64,000 nucleotides of DNA from Camelus ferus (lineage: Eukaryota). The translations under genes and the position numbers were made by a program. The notes below the pieces were generated by a model. It was given only the letters and a program-made list of their open reading frames with translations. It was not told the origin of the DNA and searched no databases. Below, one piece after another: positions 3,593 to 56,891 of the stretch (the first letter of the stretch is position 1; every line of letters starts with the position of its first letter). Location: contig NC_045696.1 in NCBI RefSeq assembly GCF_009834535.1, forward strand, positions 8,000,001 through 8,064,000. Direction: 5' to 3'.

Positions 3593-6500
3593 CTGAAACA
3601 TGAACATACACAAAATTGGCAAGTGAGTGAAGATTTCTTTAAGAGCTGACGTTTATAAAATAAATTCCATGCCCAGACAAGGAACTGAACTGCCTGGCCA
3701 GGTCCTTCATGGCTCTAAGGGGAAGGATCTATACCAGTGGTTCTCAACCAGGGGCAACCGTGCCTCCCGGGAGACAGTGGGCAGCGTCTGGTGACATTTT
3801 AGAATGTCATGAGTTGGGGTAGGGAATGGGTACCAGCATCCTATGTTCACAGGACGGCACCACAACAAGGAACGACCCACCCACGGCACCAGCGATGCCA
3901 AGGCTGAGAACCGGGGCTACACCACCTCCTGAACCCCCCATCTGCCTCACAGTGAGCGCTTCTGCGGGAGGAGGAGTCTCCCTGCTGAGAATACAGAGAC
4001 AGCCAGTGAGTTTAAAGATGCATCCTTGCTGCTTCAGAACTGACTTAAAGTTAGGTGGCGTTAATTTCCAAAAGGAAAGATAATCCATCTTTAATTATAT
4101 TAAACTAGTAACAATATCACTTACCTGACTGACTTTCTTCTGTGGAAGGGCTGGAAATTATAGTGGTTGGTATAGAATTTGGTGGAGTACCTGTCTTTAA
4201 GGGTTTTAAGTTTATTCTCCTTGATTAAAAAAAGAAGTAAAAGGTCATTAGTATCAAAGGAATTGTGTATGACATCAAATTTCAAAACTACCCAAAGGTG
4301 ACATTTTTAAAAATTTCAGCTGATCATACCACACACGGCATTGAATGTGTTTATCTGTCCACTTACTTAGTAACTAAGGACCATGGACTGAGTTAAACTA
4401 TCACATATATAGTAGTCAATTTAAACCTTAACCAGTCACCTAAAAGTTTCAAAACCTGTGTTTTGTTCATACCAATGATACGCTGAACACTGTGCTGAAG
4501 GCTTCATATATAAGCTTATCAGATATGGCTTCTACCATGGAAAGCTCCAAAACATACACGTTTCTTTTTGAAGTCCCAGTCTTTACTTTTAACCACTATT
4601 TTTTTTACATTATAACTGTAAGAAGATCACAAGAAATTAAGAGGGGGAAAAACTTTAATACTAAAAATATTTCAAAGAACACCTTCCCATTTACTTCCCC
4701 TACCTAAAAACAAAAAGAATTTTTTTAAAAACATTGCTAGTCTGAAGAAAGATTCAAAAAGAGCCAAACACTAGACCTAACCCGTACTACGGGCCCGCCA
4801 AGGAAATTGCATGATTTTGACAGGGCGGGAGAGACACAGCGCTTCCTGTCTGTCACGCGCACCCTTCCCGCCGCATCCCCTCCCCAGGCTAGGTGGCGGG
4901 AGGCGGGCAGAGAAGGCCGTATCCCGAGTCGGTGATTTCCAGGGAAGGACACCTGGAGGCTCACTGCTGCTTGATGATGGGCACCGTGGTGAGCAGCTCT
5001 GTCTGCAGCACCAGCCGCGAACTCGGGCATGTTTACCGGCCAGATGGACGTGAGCGGGGAAGAACACACAGGCAGCATCTCCTGGAGACTGCTCAGACCA
5101 GACCACTGTTTACCGTGAGCCCGTCTGCTGGACGTGGCTGAAACCACCTCGAGGAAGGGTTCCTTTGCTTTCCTGCCCACTGGAAAGTGCCCCTCACTGC
5201 TCTGGACAAGACAACACAGGTAAAGAATGGAGACATACTCTTGTCTCATGGGGCTTATAATCTAACGGGAAACAGAAGCACAAATCAGACATCTGCCGTT
5301 GACTGTGATGTGTTGTGCTAGAGAAAAGGGCTGAAGGGACATCCAAATGGGCCTTTCAGGAGTGTCACCAGGGGAGCAGGTGTCCAGGATGTCCCTGGAA
5401 GGGAAAGGCACAGAGGCCTCCAAGGGCCGAGCGTGCTCTGGCAACCTGGCTTTTGGGTCAGGCTGGAGAGGAAGGCACAGGGAGGAAGATAGCGGGGTGA
5501 CCGTGCTGGACGGCGGGCTGCCGCAGACCCGCCTGCAGGCCGCGCGCAGGCGCCTGGACTCAGCCGCCAGGGAGGAAGCAGACAACTGAGGTCTGTAAGC
5601 AGGGAGGGGGCGCTCTCAGATTCAAAGCTGGGAAACGCCTCTCTGGCAGAGTGTGGAACGTCACCTATTGAAGGGCGGGGGCTCTCAGTCTGTGGTCTGT
5701 TTTGTGACCGCAAGGACAGCTTCTCTTTCTGTCCAAGTTCTCACCGGGGTGTTGACTTGCTCCAGGCCTGCAGGGTGTTCAGAGTGATCCTCCGGGACGG
5801 GTGGGCCTTCACATTCTGTCCACTGGGCTGCAGGGTCTTCTCCTCTGAAGGCCCCGCCAGGAAGCCTCTGGTACTAGGAGTCGTCGCAGGGGTGTCCTTG
5901 GCTGCCGTGGGGGCCGGAGGCGGTTTCGTCTGAGGGGGCGTTGCACAGGGACTGCTGGGGTCTTGGGCTCTGCTGGTGGGGGTTCCCTCTACCAGTCTGG
6001 GTCCTGGCGAAGACCCAGGGTGTGTCTGACTCTTAGTTTTCTTCGCTGTATCAGGAGTTCTCACACTCAAAACCGGTTTCTCCTTCAAGGGTATTCCGAG
6101 CTCATCCTTCTCAAACGTCACAAATGAACAATAACCATCCGTGGAAGAAATGGCCAGGAAGGCCCCATCACTGGACCTTTGTTCCCAAAACAGAAGAAAG
6201 AGTTAAAAACGTTACCAAAGTCCACGGGTCACTCTCAGCTCTCTCGTTACTAGTTAGGAAATAGAAGTTCAAGCAAAATCATGAGCTCTGTTTGAAGGCA
6301 GAGTCAAGGGGAAAAACATGATGGAAAAAGGGTTTGTGTGAGCTCCCTCCTCACACCCTTCCCCTCCCAACCCACCTCGAGTTTCTCAGGGACCCAACCT
6401 CTCTTCGTTGTCACTGAATTCACCAGAATAAAGTTGGGATGGCTTTTCCCTCCCCATCCAAGATAAAAAGAAAATTAGAAGAAGATAAAGAGTTATAAAG

Positions 6501-19750: not shown

Positions 19751-20348
19751 CCTCTAGAGTCTTGAAAGGGAGAAAAAAAAATTCCTCAGGAACCATCCTT
19801 TTGTCAAAGACAGAGGAATGCTGAAAATCGTTGGTAACGAGTTGAGTATTACAGCAGGAACGATGTTCTAAACGCTTATTAGGAGCGAGGAACCCTGCTA
19901 ACCATTAAAAATGCACGCTGTACTGGGAGAGGATGTAATGTTGACCTCTGACGTAACACCTCGCAAGTTCCACCTAAAATGATTCGCTGAGTTTTACGTT
20001 TATTCTCCTGCTACGTCCGGAAAAGTAAAATGGTTCACTCAGGCAGTGGAAATCAAGGGGCCGGATCAGGCTGCACGACCCCAGCGGCTTAGGGGAGGCT
20101 AGGGGGCGAGCCTGACAGCTAGGAGCCCGGCAGCCCCGGGGGAGGAGCCTTCCTAGGGGAGGGGACCGCCCGGAGGAGGGGGCTGCCGGGTAAGAGGACC
20201 GCCCGGAGGAGGAGGCCGCCCGGGCGAGAGGACCACCTGGGGAGCCGTCCGAGACCGCGGGCGAGAGGGGAGCCCCCTTTCCGCCGCTCGAGAAGGGGCT
20301 CTGGGCCCGGGAAGCCGAGACCGAACCTGGTGGGGGAGGAGGCAGCAC

Positions 20349-20396
20349 GGGGCCGGGGCCGGGGCCGGGGCCGGGGCCGGAGCCGGAGCCGGAGCC
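20349..20396 (+). repeat. (GGGGCC)5(GGAGCC)3 hexanucleotide repeat
   Basis: Read directly. Confidence 0.95.
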
Positions 20397-20546
20397 GGGC
20401 CCCGGGCTGGGACCAGCCGCGAGAACGCGCGCTTCCTGGGAGCTATCCCGGGTCCTCACGGCTGGCCCTCAGCGGAACCCTCAAACGCCGCCCGGCCTGG
20501 AAGGGAAACCGCGGGGACGCGGGAGTCAGCGCGGGGAAGGCCGTAC

Positions 20547-20615
20547 CTGCAGGGACGCGGTGGTCAGTCACCCGTGCCGCCAGCTCCCGCCGCCGCGCTC
20601 GCCGCTTCCCGCGCA
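20547..20615 (-). other. CHAF1B: CHAF1B non-coding exon 1 (5' end approximate)
   Basis: Donor CCTGCAG|gtacgg at 20547/20546 inside the CpG island; would splice to acceptor ttttcag|CATT at 19820; TSS not determinable from sequence. Confidence 0.7.
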
Positions 20616-21116
20616 AGCAGGCCCCGCCCCGAGTGGGCGTGACTCTAGAAACACCCCGCCTCCGCACGGGCGGGATTCCCGGGAGGCCCCGCCCCCTCCG
20701 CCGAGGACGATCCCCCTGCATCTGAGTGGTCCGAATCTGGGCTGGCTTCCGCTGGCTTCCGCAGGCTCTGTAATTCCCTGCTGGTCCGACGTTTCCGTGG
20801 AAGAATAAGGGAGTTCTTTGATTCATTTGTTCAGTCATTTCTTCCTTTGTTGATTTATTCTTTTAGCAAACATTACTGAGAGCCTGCTGTAAGCTGGACC
20901 CTATGCTGGCCCTGAATACACAGCAGAGAGCAAAGCTGACTCAGACTTACCCTCAGAAAATTGACACTCCGGTAAAAGGAAATGAAGAGCCATCCTGTAG
21001 GGCCGGTTGGGAGTCTGTAATTCTAACATCTGCGCCAAGACTATGAAGTGTTTCACTGGTGTAGTGAATATTAGACAAATGTATCAGGCCATGTCTAGGT
21101 CACTGGTGTTTCAAAC

Positions 21117-23134: not shown

Positions 23135-24598
23135 CATAGAAGAACAATAGAGAAAATCAACAAAACCAAAAGCTGTTTCTTTGGAAAACATCAACAAAAC
23201 TGACCTTAGCTAGGCTGATTAAGGAAAAAAATTCAAATTACTAAAATTAGAAAAGGAAGTGGTGACATGAAAAGTGATGTTATAATAAAAAGGATTATTC
23301 TTATGGAAATAAATAGAATACTGTTATGAGCAATTGTATGCCAGAAAACTGGATACCTATATAAATGGACAAATTTCTGGAAACACAAAACTTACGAAAC
23401 TTAATCACAAAGAAGTAGAAAATCTGAATAGACTTAAAACTAGTAAGGAAATTGACTCAATAAAAACCTTCCAACAAAGAAAAGACCTGGATAGATGGAG
23501 TCACTGGTGAATTCTGCCAAACATTTAAAGAATTAACACTAATCTTTCCCAAACTCTTTCAAAAAATTAAACAGGAGGAAAACACTTCCTAACTTATTCT
23601 ATCAGGCTGACATTACCCTGATACCAAAGCTAGACAGAAACCACAAGAAAAGAAAAACACAGACCAATAATATTATGCATATATATGCAAAAAAACCCAA
23701 ATAGTAATAAGCCAAATTCAGCAACATATTAAAAGGATTATACACTATGACCAAGTGGGATTTATTCTTGAAATGCAAGAATAACTCAGCATGTAAAAAC
23801 CAATCAACATGCCATCCACATTAATGGAATGAAGGGGGAAAAACTCCACATTATCATCTCATTTGATGCAAAAAAAACATTGAACAGAATTCAAGATAAT
23901 TTCATAATTAAAACAACAACAGAGGGGAAGGTATAGCTCAGTCATAGAGCACATGCTTAGCATGCACGAGGTCCTGGTTCAATTCCCAGTACCTCCATTT
24001 AAGTAAATAAATCCAATTCCACCCACCCCCCCCCCAGCAAAGTGTTTGGCTCTCTAAACTATGTGCATATATAAGCTTGATAAAAATAAATACTAAATAA
24101 AATAAGCTTTAAAAAAAAACACAGTAAACCAGGAATGGAAAGAATCTTCCTCAATGTGGTAACAGTAGTGTATGAATAACCCACAGCTAACAGCATACTC
24201 AATGGTGAGACTGAAAGCTTCTCCCCTAAGAGCAAGAACAAGACAAGAATGCCCAATTTCACCATGTCTATTCAACATAATATTGGCAGTTCTAGCCAGA
24301 GCAATTAAGCAAGAAAAATAAATAAAAGACATAAAAATTGGAAAGGGAGAAGTCAAACTATCTCTTTGAACATGACATGATTTTATATGTAGAAAACCCT
24401 AAGTATTCCACATACACAAAAATGTTAGAATAAATGAATTCAGCAAAGATGCAGGATACAAAATCACATAAAAAATCAGTTCCATTTCTAAACTAACAAT
24501 GAACATTCAGAAAGGAAACTGAGAAAAAATTCCATTTACAATAGCATGAAAATAATACTTAGGAATAAATTTAACCAAGGAAGCGTAAGACTTGAACA
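23135..24598 (+). mobile_element. L1 ORF2 fragment (reverse transcriptase region), decayed
   Basis: ATTACCCTGATACCAAAGC, GACCAAGTGGGATTTATT, ATCTCATTTGATGCA and GACATGATTTTATATGTAGAAAACCC motifs, with frameshifts. Confidence 0.85.
23922..24035 (+). mobile_element. tRNA-derived SINE (vic-1-like) nested in L1 ORF2
   Basis: GGGGAAGGTATAGCTCAGTC...GGTTCAATTCCCAGTACCTCC; L1 sequence resumes at about 24115. Confidence 0.85.
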
Positions 24599-32700: not shown

Positions 32701-35700
32701 AAACAAGTGGGACCTAAAAACCAAAAAAAACAAGATAAAAATGTCTAAATTATGTTGATATCATAATGACTTTCATTTCTTGCACACTCATTAGCTAAAG
32801 CTAAAACAGCAAAAAAGTTAAAACAGAAAGCTTGTATTGATTTTTATGTATTTTGTCATCTAGCTAAGCCAACACATCAGGAGAAATGTTTAAATGAGCA
32901 GATATGTTGGTATCACTGCCAGGAAGAAGGGGAAATACAGTACTATACGGTCGTTTCCAAACTCTTTTTAGCAGAAAAACTCTCCTTTCGAACACCATGT
33001 AAATATAATACATAAAATGTTTTTTAAAAGGAGCTACCCAAATTTGAATTGGGGGTTCCTTTCTTCCTCAGTAAAAGAACACCTGAATAAAGACTACATT
33101 TCCAGGGGGAGGATATAGCTCAAGTGGTAGAGTGCATGCTTAGCATGCACAAGGTCCTGGGTTCAATCCCCAGTACCTCCATTAAAATAAATAAACAAAA
33201 AACTAATTACCTACCCCCTAAAATAAAAAATAATAATAATAAAAAAGACTATATTTCCAAGTTATCCACTGGCCAGGTGACTAAGTTTTGACAGATGGCA
33301 TGTAAGCACCTTTTAGGAATCGCACCTTCCTCTTTCCTGCGACCTGGAATGTAGCTATATGCTGGCTGGGCCCCAAGGGCCATCTCAGATCACAACTGCA
33401 GGTGGAGAAGCAAAGCAACAAAGTAGGAGCCTGTGTCTCTGATGGCTGTGCAGCTGCTATCATTATTTGAGGTTTTATGTCACCTGCAAAGGAACCTGAT
33501 CATAACCAATACAGGATACATCTGTAAAATGAAGTATCACCATCCACCTCAGATGGTTATTTTAAGACTTATTAATAACAGGCACAGAACTCCCATGGTA
33601 TTAGTAAGTAAGCATCTAAGTGGGAATGAGAAAGATGGTCCCTCACTGCACAGCAATGTCCTATACACTACAGGACATTTACCAGACCTGGTCCCCATCC
33701 ATTAAATTCCAGCAATGTCCATCTCCAAAACCGTCCTACACATTTCCATATGCCCCCAGGGAGGACCATTTCCAGGTGAGAACCAGTGGAGTAGCAGATA
33801 GTCGATAAACAGAAATATTAAGTGATTTATTCTAATCTAGCCAATAGCAGTTAAGATTTAGATACCCCTGGATCCTCATGACTCCCATTATGCTGAGTGA
33901 TATAACTCACCTCACTTTTATACTGGTCCCTCTCAATACTGCATTTGTCCAGCTGTCTAAATACATCATCCAACTGCACAACCATTTCGTCCATCTCACT
34001 TTTATTCTCACTATTGGAACACTGACTGCATTCAGCCTTTACTTGTTGCAAAGCACTACACTGTTTTTTCAGCCTTTCTATTTCTTCCAAAGCTTGCCGA
34101 TACTGGGATACAATATGGTCTGGACTTTCAGACTTGCCATTAATACTTGCAAGTAAAAATACAGCATCAGTTTCAGTAGACTGATGGCAAGTTTCCTTCT
34201 TCACGTATCTGTCGTTCATTTCCAGCAGCCTCTGCTGTAACACTTTGATTTGGTCAGTAAACATATGACACTGTCTTTTATAATTTTCTTTCTCTTGGGT
34301 GACAAGAAGCAGCTCATTTCTCAGTTCACTTAACTGGCAACCAGCATCACCAGCAGATTTATCAAATGTTTCCTGGGTTTCATGTGTCTTTCCTTCAGCC
34401 CCCACACAAGGCGGCAGTAGAGTCGTGTCATTTCTTACGTCTATCTCATCTTCGACCGCTTCTTCCTTTTTAACCACTAAACTTGGTACTTCAGTCTGGG
34501 TGGCTGCAGTAGTTCCCTGATCGCACCTGGATGCTGAAGTGCCTGTTGAACCAGTCTGGCCACAAGCTTCACTGTCACCCACAGGCTCGATCTGAACTCC
34601 ACTTTGCTCCAGGTGACTCTGCTGCAATTTCACTTCAATATCATCATCCACTGCAGGCTTGGGAGTGCTGTTTTCTTCTAAGATGATGACATCTTCATCA
34701 TCATCGTCATCTTTGTAATTTTCAAATGCTTGATTACTCAATCTTCGATTCTTTGCATTCAAAGTTGATGAACGAGTAGAAAGTCTCCGTTTCAGGCTAG
34801 AAAATATTTTAAGTATAAAATGTAAGATTATAAAATGTAGACATGGACAAAAATAGATGACCTTGAAGTAATCTAACTATCTTGAAATTCTAAGAAATGC
34901 CCATGTTCATTTTTTTTTTAAATGATGTATCTCATAGTACTGCCCAACGACTTAATGAAGTAGACAGTATTTTCTCCTTTTACAGATGAAGAAACAGACT
35001 ATTGAGACCTCTTAAGTATCAGATCCATATACTGCCAAACATCTCTTCATTTGATGTCCTCCGGCATTTCAGTCTACACATGTGCAAACAGAATGCTACC
35101 ACCCATCCCAGGCTGCTCTTTGAATCCCAGAGCTCAGTGAGTGGCACCGCCATTCCAGTTTGCCCTCCATAGTATTTTCTTAATCAACATTCAGTGATCC
35201 AAGGTGAGCCACAAAGTAAACCTGCATGCCCTATCCTTTCATGTAAAACAATTTCCCCTGTATTAAAAATTGCCTCACTTTCTTCATCTGCTTAATTTTT
35301 CCGTGAATTTATCACCAATTAATTACTTTTTGCCCCACTCAGAGGGCTTGTTATTTGGACTTTATGTGTTAGACCTTATTTCTCAAGAGTTTCCCCTTTC
35401 TTATATGGAGAGGGAATAATCTCCAATAAAATCTTGAGAAAGGGTACACACAACATAAAAAATGTGAAATTTTCCATGATGAAAATATCTTTATTCATCT
35501 CTCAAGTTCATTGCTGGCTTGATTTTTATATAGACTTCTAGGTTAGAAATCACTTTCTCAAAACTTTAAAAGCATCATTCCATTGTCATCTGTCATTCAC
35601 TGTTCTTCCCACTCCGATTCCTGATCTCTTGCATGTAGCCTGGGTTTTTCCTTTCTGGAAGGAAAAAAACCTCTCTTCTCAGGTGCTCTAAAATTTCATG

Positions 35701-39044: not shown

Positions 39045-42000
39045 AAAAACTCAATCACTGCTATATACCAGAAACTAACACAATATTGTAAATCAACTAT
39101 ACTAAAATTAAAAAAAAAAGAGAGACAGAATGTGAACTGAATGAACGAGATTGCTTCAATTCGTTATGTTAACTCCCAAGCTTAACATTGAGTATTTGTT
39201 AAATTAATTACAACCCAAGATAAGACACAGCTATAAAGTGGAAGGCTTAATTACCCGAGGAATTGTTTCAAGTTGCCTGATCCTGAATTTTTCTTTGTCT
39301 CTTAAAAAAAAAGGAAAGAAAAAAGAAACATATTTAAATTTATTGCATTATTATTTTTAATTGTTTTCCAAGGACATACTTGCCATTTCACAACTAAGTC
39401 ACTCAGATAATGTTAACTGACCTCTGCTTCAATTTCATTATAATCAGTGGTAAGCCCTAGGCAGGGGACTAATTCCCATCTCATCTCAGTTACATCCCTG
39501 ATGTCTGCCTCAAACTCTCCATACCCACCAGCATTATTCTCAGACTTTGAAGAAGGGTATCACACTTTCTAACTGGTTTCTTTACTTCTAATCCTGCTAC
39601 TGGATTTATCTTCAAAAACAGTGCACTGTAAATCAAAACCATATGGAGGATGGTTTTTGTGAACTCAGCCTTCCGTGTGCAGTATGCTGGCTTAATGTTC
39701 ACCATGGTTCACTATCATTACCCAGCTTTCTCTCTCTCACCTCTATCTTCCATTATGCACATCACATATTTACTTTAATTAAGCTGAACAAATCATTGTT
39801 TCCTACCCAATCCTACCCACCCTTCAAGGCCTATTACCAAATGTCCTTCATAAATTTTCCTTATCCATTTTTCCATCCCCAGCCAGAAATAATTTCTCCT
39901 TACAGGCTTCCTAACAGGACTGGACGGTGCCTTTTATGGTAGTCGTCAACTTCTAATTGGTAATACACGTCTCATTTTCCCTGTTAGACTATAAGCTCAT
40001 AAAGGGCTGTATTCACTTATGATTCATCTGTGTGCAGTTCAAAGACAAATATTATACTGGATATGCAAAATATCTTTCTTGCAGATAGGACAGCAATAAA
40101 GAGCAGGTGAAAAAACAGCAGGTTTCCACAGTATAAACTTAAAAAGCACTCAATGTGATGCACTCCACATCATAATCTTTTTTTGGAGGGGTCATAACCT
40201 TTTTTGGCTGTACTAAGTTTATTTTGGAGAAGCATCAACTAATGCTGCATACACATCACTGCTGAAGTTTGGGTATTATTCTCCCACCATACATTAATAC
40301 AACACTCACTTCTTTTTGTAGGTTTTCTCATAAGTGGGATGCACCAAATCTTCATCTTCAGGTTCTTCTGGAACATCACAACTTCTAATCAGAAAAATCA
40401 CATGGGAATAACACGTCACCAGCGCCTATTCATACATCCTGAATAGTACTTTCTGCCTTTCCCAAAAGGGTACTACCAACTATATGGTACCTGAACTGTG
40501 GGTCAGGGTTATTGGAGCAATACCATTTTTCCGGAAGTTGATCTATCCCATCTGGTAATTTTCGCCACTTTAGACAGGAATCACATTGAACCCATGTCTG
40601 ATCAGGACGTTTCCTGTAACAAAATAACAAATATTAGCATGGAAATAGGATCTAAGTACTTCATTAGACCTTCCATATCATTTCTACCACAAAGTGCCCC
40701 TTTTATTTAACTCTGTCCCTGAAAATTCCGTGACATAACTATTTATGTTGGTCAGTAAGTTAAGTTTTTAAAAACAATTCTGGTTACCTTCGAAGGTTAA
40801 AGGTGACAGACCAATTTAAACAAAGATACTTAAATATCTTGTTTAATAGCATACTGTTAAATTTGTTTCATAATAAAAACTCAAACCTAAGAAAATAATA
40901 CAAACGCCTTGCTCTGAAATTTATATTCAGTTAGCACCTGCAGTGTCAAATCTAATACATTTATTAACACAATAAACTAGTCAAGTACAGAAAACAGGCA
41001 AGTTGTATTACAATTTAAGCAATTTTTATAATTGCATGACATTTTAACTCTATGATAGCATCTCTCTGAATAACCCAAATTTGTACATTCTTTTAGTTTA
41101 TAAAAGGCTTTCATATGTTTATCATTTGAAAATTACAATGATCCTGAAAAGAATTTATGTAGACTCATTTAACGACTTCATCTTAATACCAATAATTTTA
41201 ACTCTAGTTTAAAAAAAATGCATTTACACATTTTATTAAAAAAAAACAAACAATCCAGAAATTTGTAAAGTAAACATAAACTTGTTTCAGGAGGTTACTA
41301 CTGTTACTTTTTTTAATCCTGGCAGGCTTTTTCTATGCTTATAGAATTATGCATGTGTATACGGACACTTTAAAAAAAAACAGGAAATTAATACACTGAG
41401 TTGCATCCTTTTTGTTTTTCATTACGTATCTTGGACATCTTTCCATAGGCACCCTGAGTTGTTATCATTTCAGAGGACTGTTACTACATACTATATACTT
41501 TACTGAGTGCTTATCTTTAATTCTTACAAGTTGAGGAGGTAAGTGCTATTACTGTTTCCATTTTACAAATGATAAAATGGAAGCTTACAAGAGGTCAAGT
41601 AACATGTTCAATGTCACACAGCCACTTAAGCAGCAGAACTAGAATTTAAACTTAAATCTGGCTTTAGACTCTTGATCCTATCTCCAGAATTTTCAAACTA
41701 TAAGATGCAACCCATCAGTGGATCATGAAATCAGTTTAATGGGTAAAGACCAGCATTTTTTTCAAATATGGGTAAATGCTGTTTCATGACTTTTGTGTAT
41801 ATGTGTAAATGTATATATTCATTCGTTCATTTTACAGTGTGCTGATTCGAGCCGTAGGATTTATTTCTATGGGTTAGATTAAAAAGTTTACGCACCCTAC
41901 GCAAGAAGTGGTATAGATCAGTGGTAGAGTGCATGCTTAGCATGCACAAGGTCCTGGGTTCAATCCCCAGTACCTCCATTAAAAAAAGTTTACACAGTAC

Positions 42001-48000: not shown

Positions 48001-51000
48001 CAATTACAAATGAAAATTAGAACTTTAAATAAAAGTTACTGATAGCTCATATCATGGGTGTCAGATTTCTGGCTTTATTTTTTGATTGAAATTAGCAACT
48101 AAAAAGAAAAGCCCAAAGCTCATTTACTATTTTTCTTTAATTGAAGTACAGTTGATTTATAATATTATATTAGTTTCAGGTATGCAACACAGTGATTCAA
48201 TATTTTTATGGACTGTACTCCATCTAATGTTATTAAAAAATATTATAAAATATAAAATCCCTGTGCTGTACAATATATCCTTATTGTTTATTAATTTTAC
48301 ACATAGTAGTTTGTACCTCTTAATCCCCTACCCCTATTCCTCAACCAAACCTCATCCCCACTGGTAACCACTAGTTTGTTCTCCTTATCTGTGAGTCTAT
48401 TTCTATTTTGTTATATTCATTTACTTGTTTTATTTCAGATTACATATATATATAACAAAAAGTATCTGTCTTTTTCTGTCTGACATAATTCACTGAGCAT
48501 AATACCCTCCAGGTCCATCTGTGTTAATCGCAAATGGCAAAATTTCATTCTTTTTTATGACTAAGTAATATTCCACCATGTGTGTGTATGTGTGTGTGTA
48601 CATACCCACACTGTTATCCATTCATCTGCTGATGGACACTTAGGCTGCTTCCATATTTTGGCCATTGTAAATAATGCTGCTATGAACATTGGGATACTGT
48701 TTTTATTTTCTTTGGATATATACACCCAGAAGTGGAACTGCTGGATCATATGGGAGTTCTATTTATTTACTCTTGTAAGAATGCTATATATTCTGGGCTC
48801 ATAACACATAAAATGTGTAAGAGTTATAACCCCTGTTGAATAATATTCAAGATACACCCACACTATTATACTGTGTAGAGCACTTATCGTTCTACAAAAA
48901 ATTTAGAATGAAATAAAATGAATAGAAAATGAAAATCATAGAATTGGAAAACAAAATATGTCTAGACTTAAAACTTTTAACAAAGATCAATTCCAGAATT
49001 TATCACTAAATTCTTAACACACACATACCAAAAAAAAAACCTTTCTGTGTAAAGGATAAACTGATACAGTGGGCAATGTTCGTCATCCTAAACTGAATCC
49101 CACAATAACGGGAGTGGTTTAGAATGAACACTCTAACATATTCAGAACTAACCCAGGAAAGCAAATCACCTATCTGGTATTATTTCTTAGGCTACTGAGT
49201 CAACACTACTTAAAACGAACCAATTTCATTCCAGCACGAAATAATCAAGGATCCTTATTTAAACGTAGTGAAAAGATGTGCACCTGTGCCTGAGATCCAC
49301 ACTCATTGCTAGGTCTGGAGCAAGTTACCAAACTTATTAGCCCTAATTTCCTCATTTGTAAAACAGAGATAAAATATTCTGACCTCCTCATCAGATTATT
49401 CAAGACCAAATGAAAAATTAGTATAAAAGTATTTTAAGTTCAGGTTCCATACCAATGTTATTAAAAACACTGACATTTAAACACATTTTGCCCAGTAACA
49501 TGTTATCCTAACTTTTATAAAAGCTACAGACATTTTCAAGATATAAAGCTTACCCTTAATTGACATCCAACTTTTTCATAAGCTTTGATGAGCCTATTTC
49601 TGTGATACATCATTATCCCATAATGATCTTTATTTCTGCAGTTGAATCCAAAAGTAATTCTCACTGTTTTATTAGTCTTAAATGTTAAGGAAAATTCTGA
49701 ACACACCACCTCACTCCCTTCAAATCACTCTATTTCATTATTTGAGTCCAAAGCTGCATTAAAAAAGGGCAAAGGTAGAAAGGATTAGATTCTATATCAG
49801 GATAAAAGGAGAAAGGGGGAAGGGAAATATACTTGATTGACATCTATTTCTATATAGCATCATAAAAAGGATACTAAAAATTTGGGTCGATAAATATCAC
49901 GTTCAATGTAGGCAAGACTCTTCGAAACTAGCTGGGTCTTCACTTTCTGTCCACGTAAGATGATCTGCATTCTTGGCTTTAGATATAATATACTGCAGTA
50001 AGCCTGCAAAGACACACAACAATATCTGTCCTTTCCAAATAATTATCTGTGGATTTGTTCAACATACACATGTATTTGAAAAGAAAGCTACAACCTTGCT
50101 TGGATAAAGGACCAATTAACTAGACAATAAAATACTATAAAGGTGTATTAGTTAATATCTGAATAGTTTTTATTAAAAATAAACTCAATCTACCAGAGCC
50201 AGTAAAAATGATTTGCAGAAAACAATCTACTGACCTACATAGATGTTATGTTAAGTGAAAAAAACTTACAAAACAAGCATGTATGGTATGATCTCATTTT
50301 AATTTTAAAAAAATGTTTCTGTGTATAATAAAAAGTACTATATTTTGACTCTTCTGTCAATACATATACTGCTATTACAATTTTAAAAGCATCAATAAAT
50401 TTTATTTGGGGAAAAATAAGCAAAATCTAATATGAACATAAGGGACTATTATAAGCTTCCAAAGGAAAAAAAATCATAAATAATGCACCAACATTTAAGC
50501 AGAACAGCACTTTTTCAAAGCTGAGCTGTAACAATCAGCAGTCATCTAAATGTGTTTTTAATTCTTAATGAATGAAGGTTTAGATACTTTAGAATCTTGA
50601 CCAAACTCTGCATCCTAAAACATGTTAAAATATGCTCTTCTGTGCCTGCCTCCAAGCTATCAGAAGTCTCTGAAGGAGATGAATTGAGTAACTCAATAAG
50701 GATAGACAGAAATTTCAACACAAAAAAAAATTTGTACATATCTCTTACTTTTCTTCCCCCCTAACTTCTGATTTCAAAATTAGTGGTTCTGTCATTTACA
50801 AAATTCATTAATGATATTTCAAAACATTTTATGTCATGCTATACTAAAACTACACCATCTGCTCTAGACGCCTCTGGATATTCTTGAGCAAGATTTCCTT
50901 AACAACTAGGACATACTTCACCAACAAACGGGGGTATATAATGGAATAGTAATACCTGCCACTTAATTGCTAGCATCTCAGAAGAAGTTACTTAGGAAAC

Positions 51001-54000
51001 TTGTAAATGTCAAATGTATCCTCAACTTGGAGTTATGAAAAAATTTCAGCACAAAAAAGGGGAAAAGTTAGTGTATGTCATCATAGTGACAATGTTATTA
51101 TCATATCAACATTATCACACTGAGATCTTACTGTCTTCAATCTTAAAAACATGCCCATCTCTAAGGTCAAATCTCAGAGATATTTATCACAAAATTATAT
51201 TAACGTACATTATTTGTAGGCTATACATAATTTATTGCTTTAAGATAGCAATTAATGTGTGTGTGTATGTATAGATTCTAGAATATTTTAAATTTTAAAA
51301 AAGAGACATACTCTGAATTTTTTATCTAGAGTAACTTTACGTTTTGATTGAATTAATCAATATGGCCATCACAGGATATATACTGATTCTAGTATTTCCA
51401 ATTCAAATAATTAACCACATCATGAAAGAACTTTTATAAGCACTGTTAGACCTGATAACTTTGCAATTAAAAAACTGGTTTCTAAGTAAATAAAACAACC
51501 AGTGCACACATGACAAATTTAATAAATGGGTTCATGTCTGAGATACTTTCACTTAGAGACTGCTGGCAGCATTTATAACACAAGTGGGTAACATAATTTC
51601 CATTATTTGATGATTTCCTCATTCCCACAAAGAGAGTGGAATACATACCCTTAGGGAATAGTCACTCTCAGGGGCAATTTGGTCCATCCTTTCTTGCTTC
51701 TTGTACCCTTTCTTTCCTGCTGTCTCATCTAAATCTTCTGGAATCCTGATGTCATATTTATCCTTATCAAAATCAAACTCTGTTGCACTTTTGTAGCTAT
51801 AAAAATAATAATTTTTTAAAAGAGCTAAATTTTAACTTCACCATAAGCAAGCAAATAACTATTAGTTAACAAAGATATAAACCTTACTGTTAATTGACAT
51901 CCAACTTTTTCATTAGCTTGGAGTCATGGTCAGGGTAGTTGGGGGAACAAAAGCAAGGGGGAAAAAAAGAGAGAAAGAAGGAAAAAAGAAAAGGAAGAAA
52001 AAAGAAGCGAAGAGAAGAGAAAAGGAATCCAGGAAGGTACAGAAAAAGTGTATTCACCCACACTGCTGGTGGGAATGTCAAGTGGTAGAAGCACTTTCTG
52101 ACTGTTTCTTAAAAAACTAAACATGCAACTATCATGTGACCCAACAATTTTACACTCTTGGGCATTTATCCTAGAAATATAATCGTATTTCCACAAAAAC
52201 CTGTATGCACATATTTTATAGCTTTATTTGTAATAACTGAAAATTGTAAACAATGCAGATATCCTTTAACAGATGACTGGTAAACACACTGTGGTCCATC
52301 CATACAATGCAGTATCACTCAGCAAGAAAAAGGAAAACAAATGAACAAACACAAGAACCTGGATGAATCTGCAGAGAATTATGCTAAATGAAAAAAACCT
52401 AATCCCAAAAGGTTTCACACTGTATGATTCCAGTTATATAATATACTTAAAATGACAAAGTTACAGAAATGGACATGTTAGAGGTTGCCAGGGATTAAGG
52501 AGTGGATATGGACAGAAAAGGGATCTCTGTAGTGACGAAAACGTCCTGTATCTTGACTGTACCAATGTCAATATCAATAGTACTACTGTACTACAGTGTT
52601 CCAAGATGTTACCACTGGGGAAAATGGGTAAAGGGTACATGAGATCTAGTATTTCTTATAACTACACATGAATCTACAATTATCTCAAAAAATTTTTAAA
52701 AATGGGGTGGGGGGAGGGGAGACAAATGAAAAAAGACAAAAGAAAAAGAATACAGAAGCTCAGAAAAGCACAAGAATTAAAGAATTTTAGACATCACTAT
52801 TTGTAGTTTATTCCTATGGTCTAATATTTCTTAGATTTCTCAATATCACATTCATCCTAAATTTTAAAACCTTATTTGCAAAGGATTTTATCCTCACAAG
52901 GACTTAGGAACACAGAAGTCTCATCTGTATTACTTTCATTAACTATGCCATAAAATGAGGACCATCCGATGTTTCTACTCTGTGTAACAATGGATGGATG
53001 TAACGAAGTCGTTCCCACACATGCACTTTACTTCCCAAATGGTTAACAATTAGCTGAACATTTACCTTCTGAGATTCCAAATAATGATCCTTGTCCCCTT
53101 CTTACCAATGATAGCATCGAGTTCTGCCAGTAATTTCTGTTCCGTAGAAAACAGAGAATGTTCCAGAATTGCAGCAAGGCTTGCTTTTGATTCTGTCGAA
53201 TTAATTATCTGTCGTATATCCTAAGTTAAAGACTTAGACCAATGACATACTTTTCACAATTATAATATGGAAACCAACACAAACAGAAAAATCATTTCCT
53301 AAACTATTTTCTAAGTTTTACAATGATAGTCTGACTTCAACTGAACACCAAGAAGAATAAAATATGAGCAAGCCTATTATTATTCTTAACTAATTTAATG
53401 ATTTCCAATATTTGAATGTGTTTATACAGAAGACATTTTCCTAAAGATATCTTGCTTTTCATGGTTGTTGAAGAAAATTTCGAGTCAGATCGTTAAGTCT
53501 TAATAGACCACGGTAAGACTGAAATGAAGAAGAGAGCTACGGGAAGCTCAACATAAAATGCGATCACTTTATGTTAAGGATTTCCATGGCACAATTCCAA
53601 CAGAGAACAGAAAAGAATAAATGTTTAGCCTCAGATGTAGGGCAGAGGCAGTGGATAGGAACAAGAGCTAGAATGGAAAGCGTGATTGAAAAACAAGAAT
53701 CTGGAGGGGAGGGCAAAGGATGGAATGGTTCATAATATTTCTTCAGAGTTTCAATTTCGAAATCAAAAGGATATGGTTTTTGTTGAATGCCACTATTGGG
53801 ACAACAACATGTTCTGCTTTTATGACTTCCAAGTAGGTCTGAGACAAGAAGCCCACGCTCATGCTTTCTCCATTTTTGGTAAAAACAATTGCATCTTTAC
53901 CCAAACGCATAGAACCTGACTTGAAGCCATTCCCATACAATCCAACTGGGACGTGACCATTCATGGTGACTTTGTCACTGAAGCCAAAGCTAAAAAGAAA

Positions 54001-56891
54001 AAAAATTAAATAATAGGTATAAACTTCATTTATTTCAATTCAAAAGCTGTAATATCAAGTAACAAGCCTAAATTTGAATGCTGGCCTCATCCTTCCTAGT
54101 TGTATAATCTTGGGTAAATTACTTTTAATCAATCTGTCTTAATCTGTTTTCCCATCTCTGAAATGAAGGAAACCAAATCCACATCACAGGGATGCAAGGA
54201 CTGCACATAATGAACAGGAGCTCATTGCCTGGCACATCCTGGCTAAATGGCCGAATTATAATTTAGGCTCCTGTGATCTTGAGATGACACCCCACGAAGT
54301 CTCTTCCTCTAAGTGTGAATGATTCTCTTATTCTCAGCAAGCCTGCTGTACTATGATTACCGATGGAGTCAATGTGACTGTTTGGCAGTATAAGGAGCAT
54401 TTGAGGGACAGGAGAAAGGTCTCTGCTGCCAAATCCTCCTTCTACCCTGTACCTGTACCAGTATCTCAGGTTCCATTTCAGGCACATTTGGCTTCATCCT
54501 GACATTCTGTTCTGTGACTCTAGAGTCCAAGGCCTATGCCTATGCTACTTCCTCATCCTCTGACTCATTCAAAAATTACCAGTCCCCCTTCCCCAAAGTA
54601 TTATGTTTCATTAGTTCAAACTAATTCCACAAAAGCATAAATAATTGATGTTAATGTGCTACAACTCTAAAGGAACAGTGGAATTTTAGGTAAGTCAGAC
54701 ATGGGGAGGGGTGATGAGAATGACAGGGATTGCCTAATAATCTAACAGCAGTAGAAAATGACAGAAGACTTAGAGAATAGAGCATACCAGGTATACATTT
54801 TATGTTTAAAAGATAACTACAGGCAATACGTATGACACATGAAACACCTGAACAAGGTAAAAGCAAATGATTTTATCAAGTGTGACACTTTTACATACCT
54901 TAGCATTTTATGTAATTTGTCTGAGGTCATACCATTCCCATTATCAGTGAATGTCAGGCATATATGGTCATTTATCACTGTTTTGTCAATCCATATCTGT
55001 TTAGCATTCACATCAGGATCATAAGCATTATCTGGGAACCAGAAGTTTTGAGAAATTTTGATTTTGCATTTAAAGAAGAGCAATTAGTTCTGAACAATCC
55101 TTTAACAAGAAACAGGACAATGTGTTTTAAGGAAATTTGAAAGTTGAAATGTTTAGGAATTCCTAAGACTTTACAACATGAAATCTAAACTGTACTGTGC
55201 CATATATCATTCATTGACTATTACAGAATTAATTCTATCCAAAGCCCTCCATTTGTTATATAGAGAGCCAAGCTGGTACCCACTACACTGAAAAAGTGTA
55301 AAGCAAGAAGTATCACTGCACTAAACAGATGAACAAGACAGGAAGGTCTTCTTCTGCCCGAAGAACTAGCCTAGCTATCATAAGGGAAACTGAGAGCTGG
55401 GTGTCAACAGCACTACAAGTTGACATGGAAGGTCCACAATGTGGTTACCTGAATAAATGGGGAAAAAGTATGCTCATCTACGTACACAGATGCAGGTTTG
55501 CCTTCTATATACAGTTCTTCAAATTGTGGCCCTTTTCAATCCAACAAAAGTTTCTGATGGCTTGTACATTTCTCTCATCTTTGTACCCCTTCACATTTAA
55601 CACCCTTGCCTAGCATACTTGTTTCTCTCAGAATAGGTTAAGTATGAAGGAATATATGACAGAAAAACAAACAAACAAAAGTTCAGCAATAGCTAATAGT
55701 AATAAAATCAACTTGTGAACTAAGATCTGAATATCCCTAACTGACGAAAAATACTTCTTGAGACATATTTTGAAGTCTTTATTATAACACAATGATTCCC
55801 AAATTATCCTTCCATAAGACCACAATTAAAATCAAATAACCTTTCATCAATCACTTTAACTTCATAAAAAAAGCTTAAAATTTGATACACCACAAAGAGC
55901 ACCATGACTTTCAGTTGCTCTAATCCAAAGCTAGAGAAGCACTATGTATGAATGAACAATCCCAGGCTGAGGAGCTCCTCCAGGTTGCCATAAAAAAGAA
56001 TGAACATGAAAAGCTGCAACGTTATTTAATGTGCACTTCAGAGTTTACATGTGAACAGCACACGTTAGCTGTGAGACTTTAGAATATCTAGCTATATCGA
56101 AGAAAAGAAGGGTCCTGAAATTTTCTTTCCTTTTCTTACACATCCAACATAGGACCCTTCTTTGATATAGAATCTATATCTAAGAATTCCTGAGGATATA
56201 GTTTTCCTTTATTATCTGTTTCTCAAATAGGCTTAAATTTTAAAATTCATGTATATCAATTTAATTAAGAAAAAATCATGACCTATAATGCAAATCCGAT
56301 CACAATCTTGCTTTTCTCATGTTCATTAAAACATTTTTAAATACAATCTTATATCTTGATCATTCTATCTATTGGAAAAACCAAGAAATTATCACAAATC
56401 TAACATATAACATTAATCCTTCTATTTACTAACAACAGAAAAATGAATCCACCGTTATAAATATTTTCCAACTATTAAAAAAATATATAACTCTAACTTT
56501 CTGGCAACAGTCCTATTTCTTTTATAATCAGAATAAAAATATTTTCAACATAAAAGCCATATGAACTTCGCAAATTAAAATACTTTGATTTGATAGGAGT
56601 ACAGGGAAATAATTTGATAATAGTATAGGGAAGGCTGAGCAGTGATTAATTTGACATCCACTTGAACAGTTGTTACACTAGGTAAGCTTTACCAATGTTA
56701 TCACTGAGATACACTTGGCTTTTTAAAAAAGCACATCTGCATAACACTTTTCAATAAAAACTTTTTAGAACTTCAATTTGCAAGCAACAGATTAGATATG
56801 AAACATCATTTTACATACCTATTAATTCAGCAACCGCACTAAATGGCCAAGTGTGACTAGTAGAATTTGTATGTAAAAACTTCGGGCAAAG
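29607..56891 (-). CDS. MORC3: MORC family CW-type zinc finger protein 3 (NXP2), coding exons 2-17; 5'-partial, exon 1 outside the window
   Basis: GHKL ATPase motifs ([35 protein letters not shown]), CW finger ([11 protein letters not shown]...WYC), coiled coils and C-terminus [11 protein letters not shown]. 16 exons total 2778 nt and stay in frame. Confidence 0.98.
30910..31205. mobile_element. MER33/MER3-like hAT remnant
   Basis: TAGCCACATTAAAAA...GCACATCTCAATTCAGACTAG...AGCCAAATGTGGCTA. Confidence 0.6.
32292..32449 (-). CDS. MORC3: MORC3 exon 16 ([19 protein letters not shown]...TDGE)
   Basis: tgtcag|GTT...AAG|gtaata; 158 nt. Confidence 0.95.
33105..33243 (+). mobile_element. tRNA-derived SINE (vic-1-like)
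   Basis: Intact head and A-rich tail; 16-bp TSD AAAGACTAYATTTCCA at 33089-33104 and 33244-33259. Confidence 0.9.
33911..34796 (-). CDS. MORC3: MORC3 exon 15 (LKRRLSTR...DEDVIILEE...YKSE): SUMO-interacting motif, SUMO sites, TQT motif, coiled coil
   Basis: ttctag|CCT...GAG|gtgagt; 886 nt; contains most of ORF 33851-34762. Confidence 0.96.
37513..37676 (-). CDS. MORC3: MORC3 exon 14 ([11 protein letters not shown]...SEPENN)
   Basis: caacag|ATT...CAG|gtatgg; 164 nt. Confidence 0.92.
37815..37962 (+). mobile_element. MER58-like hAT remnant
   Basis: CCACAAAGCCTAAAATATTTACTACTTGGCCTTTTATAGAAAGATTTGCTGACCCTG. Confidence 0.65.
37988..38078 (+). mobile_element. tRNA-derived SINE (vic-1-like, short form)
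   Basis: Head plus poly(A); TSD CTTATAGAGAT at 37977-37987 and 38080-38090. Confidence 0.88.
38340..39120 (+). mobile_element. Rearranged L1 3' fragments (ORF2 piece and 3' UTR) with internal (CA)n tracts and a foreign insert
   Basis: AATGGGACCTAATTAAACTTAAAAGCTTTTGCACAGCAAAGG; ATGGAATATTACTCAGCC; CCAGAAACTAACACAATATTGTAAATCAAC followed by an A tail. Confidence 0.8.
38503..38557 (+). repeat. (AC)n microsatellite
   Basis: More than 20 uninterrupted AC units. Confidence 0.95.
39255..39300 (-). CDS. MORC3: MORC3 exon 13 ([15 protein letters not shown])
   Basis: tttaag|AGA...CGG|gtaatt; 46 nt; restores phase. Confidence 0.9.
40310..40384 (-). CDS. MORC3: MORC3 exon 12 ([24 protein letters not shown])
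   Basis: gattag|AAG...GAA|gtgagt; 75 nt. Confidence 0.94.
40491..40613 (-). CDS. MORC3: MORC3 exon 11 (CW zinc finger [17 protein letters not shown]...PDPQF)
   Basis: ttacag|GAA...CAG|gtacca; 123 nt. Confidence 0.96.
41480..41680 (-). mobile_element. MIR SINE
   Basis: CCATTTTACAAATGATAAAATGGAAGCTTACAAGAGGTCAAGTAAC...GTCACACAGC. Confidence 0.65.
41905..41987 (+). mobile_element. tRNA-derived SINE (vic-1-like, short form)
   Basis: TCAGTGGTAGAGTGCATGCTTAGCATGCACAAGGTCCTGGGTTCAATCCCCAG; flanked by AAAAAGTTTAC direct repeats. Confidence 0.85.
42058..42162 (-). CDS. MORC3: MORC3 exon 10 ([18 protein letters not shown]...VEDIQ)
   Basis: tttaag|GCT...ACA|gtaagt; 105 nt. Confidence 0.95.
42980..44880 (-). 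mobile_element. Old L1M ORF2/3' remnant
   Basis: T-rich decayed L1 antisense motifs (ATACCCAGGAGTGGAACTG, TGACATTTTATAATATT, GAATTACATTGATTTCCGAATATT); boundaries approximate. Confidence 0.6.
44896..45564 (+). mobile_element. Probable ERVL-class solo LTR inserted into the old L1
   Basis: GC-richer 669-bp block with TG...CA ends; 3' end TTCTGTCTCAGGACTGTACTCTGAATGACA resembles LTR16/33-type termini; no clear TSD. Confidence 0.45.
46163..46260 (-). CDS. MORC3: MORC3 exon 9 ([32 protein letters not shown])
   Basis: tttcag|GCA...CAG|gtatgt; 98 nt. Confidence 0.96.
46676..46840 (+). mobile_element. tRNA-derived SINE (vic-1-like)
   Basis: Diverged head, (TAAA)n and A-rich tail; AAAATTAAAGT on both sides. 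Confidence 0.82.
47150..47745 (+). mobile_element. 5'-truncated L1 3' end
   Basis: Closely similar to 21117-21811; ends GCTGTACACCAGAAACTAAC...AAAAAA. Confidence 0.88.
48128..48765 (-). mobile_element. 5'-truncated L1 3' end, inverted relative to 47150-47745
   Basis: TTAATTGAAGTACAGTTGATTTATAAT...GCTATGAACATTGGGA. Confidence 0.88.
49554..49676 (-). CDS. MORC3: MORC3 exon 8 ([20 protein letters not shown]...VGCQLR)
   Basis: ttaag|ACT...AGG|gtaagc; 123 nt. Confidence 0.94.
49677..49874 (-). other. MORC3: MORC3 intron 7: U12-type GT-AG intron (198 nt)
   Basis: 5' GTATCCTTTT; consensus branch TTTTCCTTAAC followed by ATTTAAG|; no polypyrimidine tract. Confidence 0.93.
49875..50003 (-). CDS. MORC3: MORC3 exon 7 ([15 protein letters not shown]...YRPKFL)
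   Basis: tgcag|GCT...TTA|gtatcctttt (U12 GT donor); 129 nt. Confidence 0.95.
51649..51796 (-). CDS. MORC3: MORC3 exon 6 ([19 protein letters not shown]...DYSLR)
   Basis: ttatag|CTA...AGG|gtatgt; 148 nt. Confidence 0.96.
52040..52700 (+). mobile_element. Old L1M (L1MC/MD-like) 3' end
   Basis: CTGCTGGTGGGAATG, CTTGGGCATTTATCCTAGAAAT, CAAGATGTTACCACTGGGG. Confidence 0.75.
53066..53213 (-). CDS. MORC3: MORC3 exon 5 ([13 protein letters not shown]...IWNLR)
   Basis: atac|GAC...AAG|gtaaat; 148 nt. Confidence 0.94.
53214..53774 (-). other. MORC3: MORC3 intron 4: U12-type AT-AC intron (561 nt)
   Basis: 5' ATATCCTTTT, branch TCTTTAAC (53232-53225), 3' terminus TATAC|; these ends keep the reading frame. 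Confidence 0.93.
53775..53989 (-). CDS. MORC3: MORC3 exon 4 ([25 protein letters not shown]...AFNKN)
   Basis: ttttag|CTT...ACC|atatcctttt (U12 AT donor); 215 nt. Confidence 0.95.
54899..55031 (-). CDS. MORC3: MORC3 exon 3 ([12 protein letters not shown]...LHKML)
   Basis: cccag|ATA...AAG|gtatgt; 133 nt. Confidence 0.96.
56819..56891 (-). CDS. MORC3: MORC3 exon 2 ([24 protein letters not shown])
   Basis: tttcag|CTT...TAG|gtatgt; 73 nt. Confidence 0.96.

Follow-up and report, generated by a model that had tools for sequence, protein, structure and literature searches.

Exons 5 to 7 of camel MORC3 lie between two minor-class introns, a probable setting for back-splicing by the minor spliceosome

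The 64,000-nt stretch of the Camelus ferus genome analysed here (contig NC_045696.1; hereafter the window) carries, to judge by sequence comparison, the camelid orthologue of MORC3 from exon 2 to the last exon, with exon 1 outside the window. Exons 5 to 7 of this gene are bounded by an AT-AC and a GT-AG intron, both with the signals of U12-dependent (minor-class) splicing. We consider this block probably to be the camelid orthologue of a known arrangement, in which exons 5 to 7 sit between the gene's only two U12 introns and, in humans, are back-spliced into a circular RNA (circRNA), probably by the minor spliceosome. The observation in the DNA is confirmed; the two minor introns, the exon 5 to 7 circle and the U12 link of that circle have already been published. 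The circle itself is most likely a low-level, untranslated by-product.

Results

Splice signals around exons 5 to 7

All MORC3 features are on the minus strand and are given in window coordinates.

53775..53989, minus strand: exon 4, 215 nt, ending one base into a codon (sequence and tblastn of the dromedary protein P0003)
53765..53774, minus strand: A-type (AT-AC) U12 5' splice site ATATCCTTTT, directly after exon 4 (motif match; human counterpart CC/ATATCCTTTT)
53214..53774, minus strand: intron 4, AT-AC minor intron, 561 nt
53225..53232, minus strand: intron 4 U12 branch-point sequence TCTTTAAC (from sequence; human bp_seq GTCTTTAAC, score 0.90)
53209..53217, minus strand: acceptor cluster ATACGACAG, with AT at 53217-53216 (427-nt form), AC at 53215-53214 (linear site and 425-nt form) and AG at 53210-53209 (420-nt form); human junctions at matching positions
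53066..53213, minus strand: exon 5, 148 nt when the AC site is used (mRNA), 143 nt with the AG site
51649..51796, minus strand: exon 6, 148 nt, ordinary GT-AG introns on either side; in-frame ATG at 51687-51685 (AGGATGG)
49875..50003, minus strand: exon 7, 129 nt, codon boundary at its end
49865..49874, minus strand: G-type (GT-AG) U12 5' splice site GTATCCTTTT, also the back-splice donor (motif match; human donor A/GTATCCTTTT, score 0.96)
49677..49874, minus strand: intron 7, GT-AG minor intron, 198 nt, AG at 49678-49677

The donor of intron 4, ATATCCTTTT, fits the A-type 5' splice site ATATCCTT and begins immediately after the exon. Towards the other end of the intron stands TCTTTAAC, which is close to TCCTTAAC and within the usual 10-15 nt of the 3' end; a pyrimidine tract is lacking, and TTAGGATATAC fills the space between branch A 53226 and the terminal C. 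The intron closes with ...TCTTTAACTTAGGATATAC, terminal dinucleotide AC. The branch A is followed by three candidate 3' ends, at distances of 10, 12 and 17 nt, the 12-nt distance being that of the terminal C. Exon 5 starts at 53213 with GACAG, which places its AG (53210-53209) 17 nt from the branch A, within the 17-18 nt estimated by the initial annotation of this DNA. Across the exon 4/5 junction the codon CGA is split as C + GA and fits P0003 (...NKNRQ...); since this split codon gives the Arg-Gln of P0003, the MORC3 mRNA uses the AC end. The acceptor, ...GATATAC/GACAGA, is identical to the human one from GATATAC on.

Intron 7 combines a 5' splice site, GTATCCTTTT, that fits the G-type form GTATCCTT with a TCCTTAAC-like branch, TTCCTTAAC, at 49692-49684, 8-9 nt before the AG (human bp_seq TACCTTAAT); ordinary GT-AG ends bound introns 5 and 6. 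Minor-class signals are therefore present at both the donor and the acceptor of the proposed back-splice, as the initial annotation had claimed for exons 5 and 7, and the human counterparts of the two introns are published as AT-AC and GT-AG. Both branch motifs stand 8-12 nt before intron ends, and both U12 donors are placed exactly at exon ends. It is this exact position, not the number of motifs, that gives the donors their weight: RTATCCTTT occurs three times in the window against 1.82 expected (at least three in 24 of 100 shuffles), which alone is not above chance, but both of its minus-strand matches fall exactly on exon ends. Matches to TYYTTAAC are at chance level (17 against 18.6 expected).

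Two further features of these introns were seen. A perfect TCCTTAAC lies inside intron 4 (53573-53580, minus strand), about 200 nt past the donor, and its branch A is followed by an AG at a distance of 7 nt. The two minor introns also share a 21-nt direct match (76%) downstream of their donors (53710-53730 and 49766-49786), which is probably due to chance.

Gene identity and published introns

Identification of the gene as MORC3 draws on several comparisons. A 71-residue one-exon translation matched 1206 of 1225 candidate proteins at E <= 1e-10, and MORC3 is the name given in nearly all of the 120 proteins listed, where a source name is present. Dromedary MORC3 (P0003) is 100% identical to the exon 4 translation over 71 aa. 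Exon borders were set by tblastn with P0003 as query and the window as target: 15 pieces covered residues 9-938, which is why we take the window to hold exons 2 to the last, and identity was 88-100% in 14 of the 15 pieces and 50% in the piece that crosses intron 7. In Pfam, P0003 matched PF13589, PF17942 and PF07496, giving the GHKL ATPase, S5 and CW zinc-finger combination of a MORC3 orthologue. Among 24 sequencing runs listed for this DNA, three that are recorded as RNA contain the stretch as contigs.

The human versions of both introns appear in the CENATAC paper (PMC8280824), where MORC3 serves as an example of a gene that combines two minor introns, one AT-AC and the other GT-AG, in an analysis of A- and G-type retention. 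The first (hg38 chr21:36337947-36338773) is classed AT_AC, its acceptor ending GTCTTTAACTTATGATATAC before GACAGA, and the second (hg38 chr21:36344708-36344911) is classed GT_AG, with donor GTATCCTTTT. Both have high U12 scores and are retained on CENATAC depletion or ZRSR2 mutation; basal retention of the two is about 0.16-0.20, and the counterpart of intron 4 reaches a retention log2FC of 2.9 on CENATAC depletion (PMC8280824). The supplement of a second paper reports both MORC3 minor introns as retained in RNU4ATAC patients.

Protein models from other species bear on conservation of the AT-AC intron. Arg-Gln stands at the exon 4/5 junction in 85 of the 89 regex-matched proteins (of 120) and in 6 of the 31 others, at the protein level, where CAG and CAA are indistinguishable. 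Among those 31, 11 contain HILL or NILL, a codon reading of the donor (one HHILF variant), and eight contain D/N/Y-IRQ, a codon reading of the acceptor. Such motifs in public MORC3 models from many species are an annotation artefact of minor introns, and these read-through models are indirect signs that the AT-AC intron is conserved. Models that read through or misplace it include P0026, P0038, P0045, P0053, P0056, P0066, P0071, P0085, P0087, P0096, P0098, P0100, P0104, P0105, P0107, P0111 and P0119. A MORC paralogue on another contig of the same genome (G000 C37, loci L002, L006 and L004) is 55-64% identical over three exons. It carries ATATCCTTT and GTATCCTTA at matching exon ends, which makes the block with two minor introns older than the duplication, and it has no AG within 5 nt of the AC acceptor.

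The 420-nt circle

Counted from the AG site, exons 5 to 7 add up to 143+148+129 = 420 nt, with a genomic span of 3334 nt (3339 nt from the annotated exon 5 start). The initial annotation gave the same sum and described the circle as free of stops in frame. Over three turns we likewise found no stops in frame 0, and 20 and 36 in the two remaining frames; for the 425-nt form, every frame has 18-19 stops over three turns. There are two in-frame ATGs, AGGATGG (the one at 51687-51685 that had been singled out for its context) and AGAATGC, and from either of them four turns are stop-free. In the 425- and 427-nt forms, reading from the strong ATG meets a stop after 58 and 60 codons. Because of the exon lengths, only the 420-nt AG form stays in frame all round, and it alone joins a length divisible by three and a stop-free frame to a start codon. 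This is not beyond expectation, since the stop-free frame follows from coding exons whose summed length is divisible by three.

Human circMORC3 junctions

The 420-nt junction predicted from the camel DNA corresponds to a catalogued human circle. According to PMC6954084, hsa_circ_0001189 (circMORC3) comprises exons 5 to 7 at hg19 chr21:37711076-37717005 and is conserved with mmu_circ_0006475; that paper also counts 41 MORC3 circles in circBase. The linear junction from 37710244 to 37711071 (131 reads; Szabo 2015, PMC4506483) sets the hg19-hg38 offset at 1,372,298 and thereby the exon 7 end at 37717005. As the circle spans 5929 nt and the distance from the annotated exon 5 start to the exon 7 end is 5934 nt, the circle starts 5 nt inside exon 5, directly behind the AG to which the initial annotation had drawn attention.

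Reads across this junction have been called in two sources. Additional file 1 of PMC4506483 lists CIRI calls at chr21:37711077-37717005 with eight junction reads (ratio 0.119) in RNase R-treated HeLa and five reads (ratio 0.033) in untreated HeLa, both filed as CIRI only. In blood, PMC11659586 (2024) reports a circle at the hsa_circ_0001189 coordinates that is RNase R-resistant and has the Sanger junction tetranucleotide TAAT.

The initial annotation had set the AG junction (420 nt) against the AC junction (425 nt) as competing outcomes. The human data bear out the AG junction, and both the AC junction and a 427-nt form are reported too. Additional file 23 of PMC4506483, which covers circular events between annotated U12 donors and acceptors, lists MORC3 37717005 to 37711071 three times, with 10 reads in mononuclear cells, three in temporal lobe and two in spinal cord. 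Because the Szabo method scores annotated borders only, reads from neighbouring forms might have been counted at this AC junction. A second blood circle (chr21:37711070-37717005; PMC11659586) is a minus-strand call with junction letters GTTA. Read on the gene strand, it joins the exon 7 end to the final AC of intron 4 and so gives 427 nt; it starts 2 nt before the AC site, its 3' end falling after AT. AT/GT flanks read as AT-AC on the opposite strand, so we take the minus-strand call to be a probable mis-assignment. For mouse, file 14 of PMC4506483 gave no hit for the acceptor position.

Other features of the window

Intron 5 holds a 51-nt copy (51872-51922), 90% identical, of the exon 8 3' end and its donor (49538-49588); the copy retains a GTAAGG donor-like site and might act as a decoy or a pseudo-exon. 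On the plus strand, antisense within MORC3 introns, are three tRNA-model matches of 39-41 bits (23927-23997, 33109-33181 and 41907-41978), which are probably tRNA-derived repeats. The minus strand of window positions 1-20800 is GC-rich (about 50%) and holds an open reading frame (ORF) at 5741-6202, which presumably resembles the CHAF1B C-terminal part. Near 20000-20800, a stretch of very high GC content may be the promoter of the gene with this ORF.

Discussion

The combination of two minor-class introns with human junctions beside one U12 branch site suggests how the MORC3 circle could arise, and manufacture by the minor spliceosome is likely on this analysis. The major introns 5 and 6 would leave first, with the two minor introns lingering. 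The minor spliceosome would then bring the exon 7 donor GTATCCTTTT together with branch site TCTTTAAC of intron 4, and the second step would use ends 10-17 nt downstream: the AG (420 nt), and also the AT (-2, 427 nt) and the AC (0, 425 nt). These ends would be used because the donor starts with G and the 3' end is chosen by its distance from the branch, a G-type donor preferring an AG within reach. Such a choice by distance accords with the three human junctions, which stand 10, 12 and 17 nt away from a single branch site. PMC8280824 names GT-AG and GT-AT as natural G-type ends, recognises a GT-AN class and names AT-AG as an A-type class.

A stricter version would make the circle an obligate minor-spliceosome product, in which the first intron base dictates the AG, AT or AC end, and hence the coding fate, and a small part of the AG form is translated into concatemers. 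We regard this version as extremely unlikely. If true, it predicts that CENATAC loss would free the intron 4 branch site for back-splicing, because the A-type intron 4 is slowed by such loss much more than the G-type donor is affected.

Several points weigh against a minor-spliceosome origin. GT-AG flanks are favoured by CIRI and find_circ; with detection tools biased in this way, read counts do not fix how often each of the three acceptors is used, and some reads may have been assigned to the wrong form. The AG is 17 nt away from the branch A, beyond the 12 nt of the linear site. In the Guo 2014 survey, AT-AC-flanked circles were not in excess over noise, and the human circle is scarce (HeLa junction ratio 0.033; PMC4506483). 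The reassignment of the second blood circle to the gene strand is our own, and the text of PMC11659586 has no mention of CIRI, find_circ or CIRCexplorer. Finally, our literature search found no test of circMORC3 after minor-spliceosome inhibition.

Alternatively, the window may simply contain two ordinary minor introns that support linear splicing in camel, any circle being negligible noise. With 561 and 198 nt, the flanking introns are short, and none of the longest 25 of the 37 inverted pairs found in 49400-54100 links intron 4 to intron 7, so pairing between the introns is no obvious driver of circularisation; the rarity of the human circle points the same way. However, circles are on record in human and mouse, and the camel donor, branch motif TCTTTAAC and acceptor bases ATACGACAG match human, so loss of the circle in camelids would be surprising and we judge this account unlikely. 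The major (U2) spliceosome might instead make the 420-nt circle, taking the AG within exon 5 for a cryptic acceptor and using GTATCC as a weak donor. GT and AG do flank the junction, the AG 17 nt downstream, and TTAAC could act as a U2-type branch. Yet the exon 7 donor matches the U1 consensus at only 3 of 9 positions (our count), the AG has no pyrimidine tract before it, and the sister circles end in AT and AC beside the same branch site. With such a donor, and with an AT end that is not a major-spliceosome site, a U2-type back-splice seems very unlikely.

A lariat origin has similarly little probability. Here exon 4 would be joined to exon 8, skipping exons 5 to 7, and the excised lariat would then be spliced internally. 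Both skipping sites are minor-class, and pairing of the AT donor with the acceptor of intron 7 is conceivable, AT-AG being a named A-type class, but no skipped isoform was seen, a 425-nt skip shifts the frame, and the same back-splice chemistry would still be required. None of these accounts displaces back-splicing of exons 5 to 7 by the minor spliceosome as our preferred reading.

Whether the circle is translated is a separate question. The initial annotation proposed rolling-circle translation of the 420-nt form, which would yield concatemers of a 140-residue MORC3 fragment; in its favour are the frame that stays open for four turns from either in-frame ATG and the rolling-circle products demonstrated for three other human circles (PMC9242994). 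This proposal goes unsupported by what we found. Among eight supplement files of that mass-spectrometry study, which used human data, there are no MORC3 entries, and the same study (Fan et al. 2022) places a host-frame rolling-circle ORF in 14% of human full-length circRNAs, so an endless frame is a common property. The early stops of the 425- and 427-nt forms and the low abundance of the circle also argue against translation. The repeated unit, approximately residues 156-295, had been envisaged as a piece of the GHKL ATPase module. The Pfam HATPase_c_3 match (30-141) does not overlap it, and of the S5 domain (249-383) it includes just the first third, so the product would be a domain fragment. 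We consider continuous translation of the circle to have a probability close to negligible.

Consequences for gene annotation are small, since the minor introns and the exon 5 to 7 circle are in print and in circBase. For circRNA detection, callers bound to GT-AG flanks or to annotated borders would each catch only part of a locus of this kind.

Comparison with known systems places the camel block close to several of them. The introns of PMC8280824 are the same two, with the same exon borders as in the window; the available part of that paper has nothing on circles, its single mention of MORC3 coming in the legend of a figure that deals with intron retention. Minor-class circles are also absent from the available part of a 2026 review of non-canonical splicing. 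The circles hsa_circ_0001189 and mmu_circ_0006475 share the host gene and the three exons; the human circle has the start 5 nt inside exon 5 that is predicted for camel, and the donor, TCTTTAAC and ATACGACAG match human. The human circle spans 5929 nt of genome against 3334 nt in camel, where the circle is predicted from the DNA.

Translation has also been claimed for a circle from the same host gene family, fish circMORC3 (PMC10775979, MORC3-84aa), but we rejected it as a precedent: it is a different circle of 424 nt, made of exons 12-14 with retained introns and carrying a finite 84-aa ORF that is driven from an IRES (internal ribosome entry site). With the circles of Fan et al. 2022 (PMC9242994), the 420-nt form shares a length divisible by three, a stop-free host frame and in-frame starts; the difference is that peptides from MORC3 are absent from the eight supplement files.

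Also close are the U12 circles of Szabo 2015 (PMC4506483), which, like the exon 5 to 7 block, have a donor with TATCCT one base into the intron and an acceptor beside a U12 branch. That study also noted that minor donors tend to circularise into un-annotated acceptors near the mRNA acceptor, as in RANBP17. The MORC3 circle differs from these in mixing subtypes, a G-type donor being joined to an A-type acceptor. This mix offers a reason for the acceptor shift, an explanation that we did not find in the available part of PMC4506483 or in the literature searched, and it would suit the MORC3 circle to serve as a natural test of 3' end choice by the minor spliceosome.

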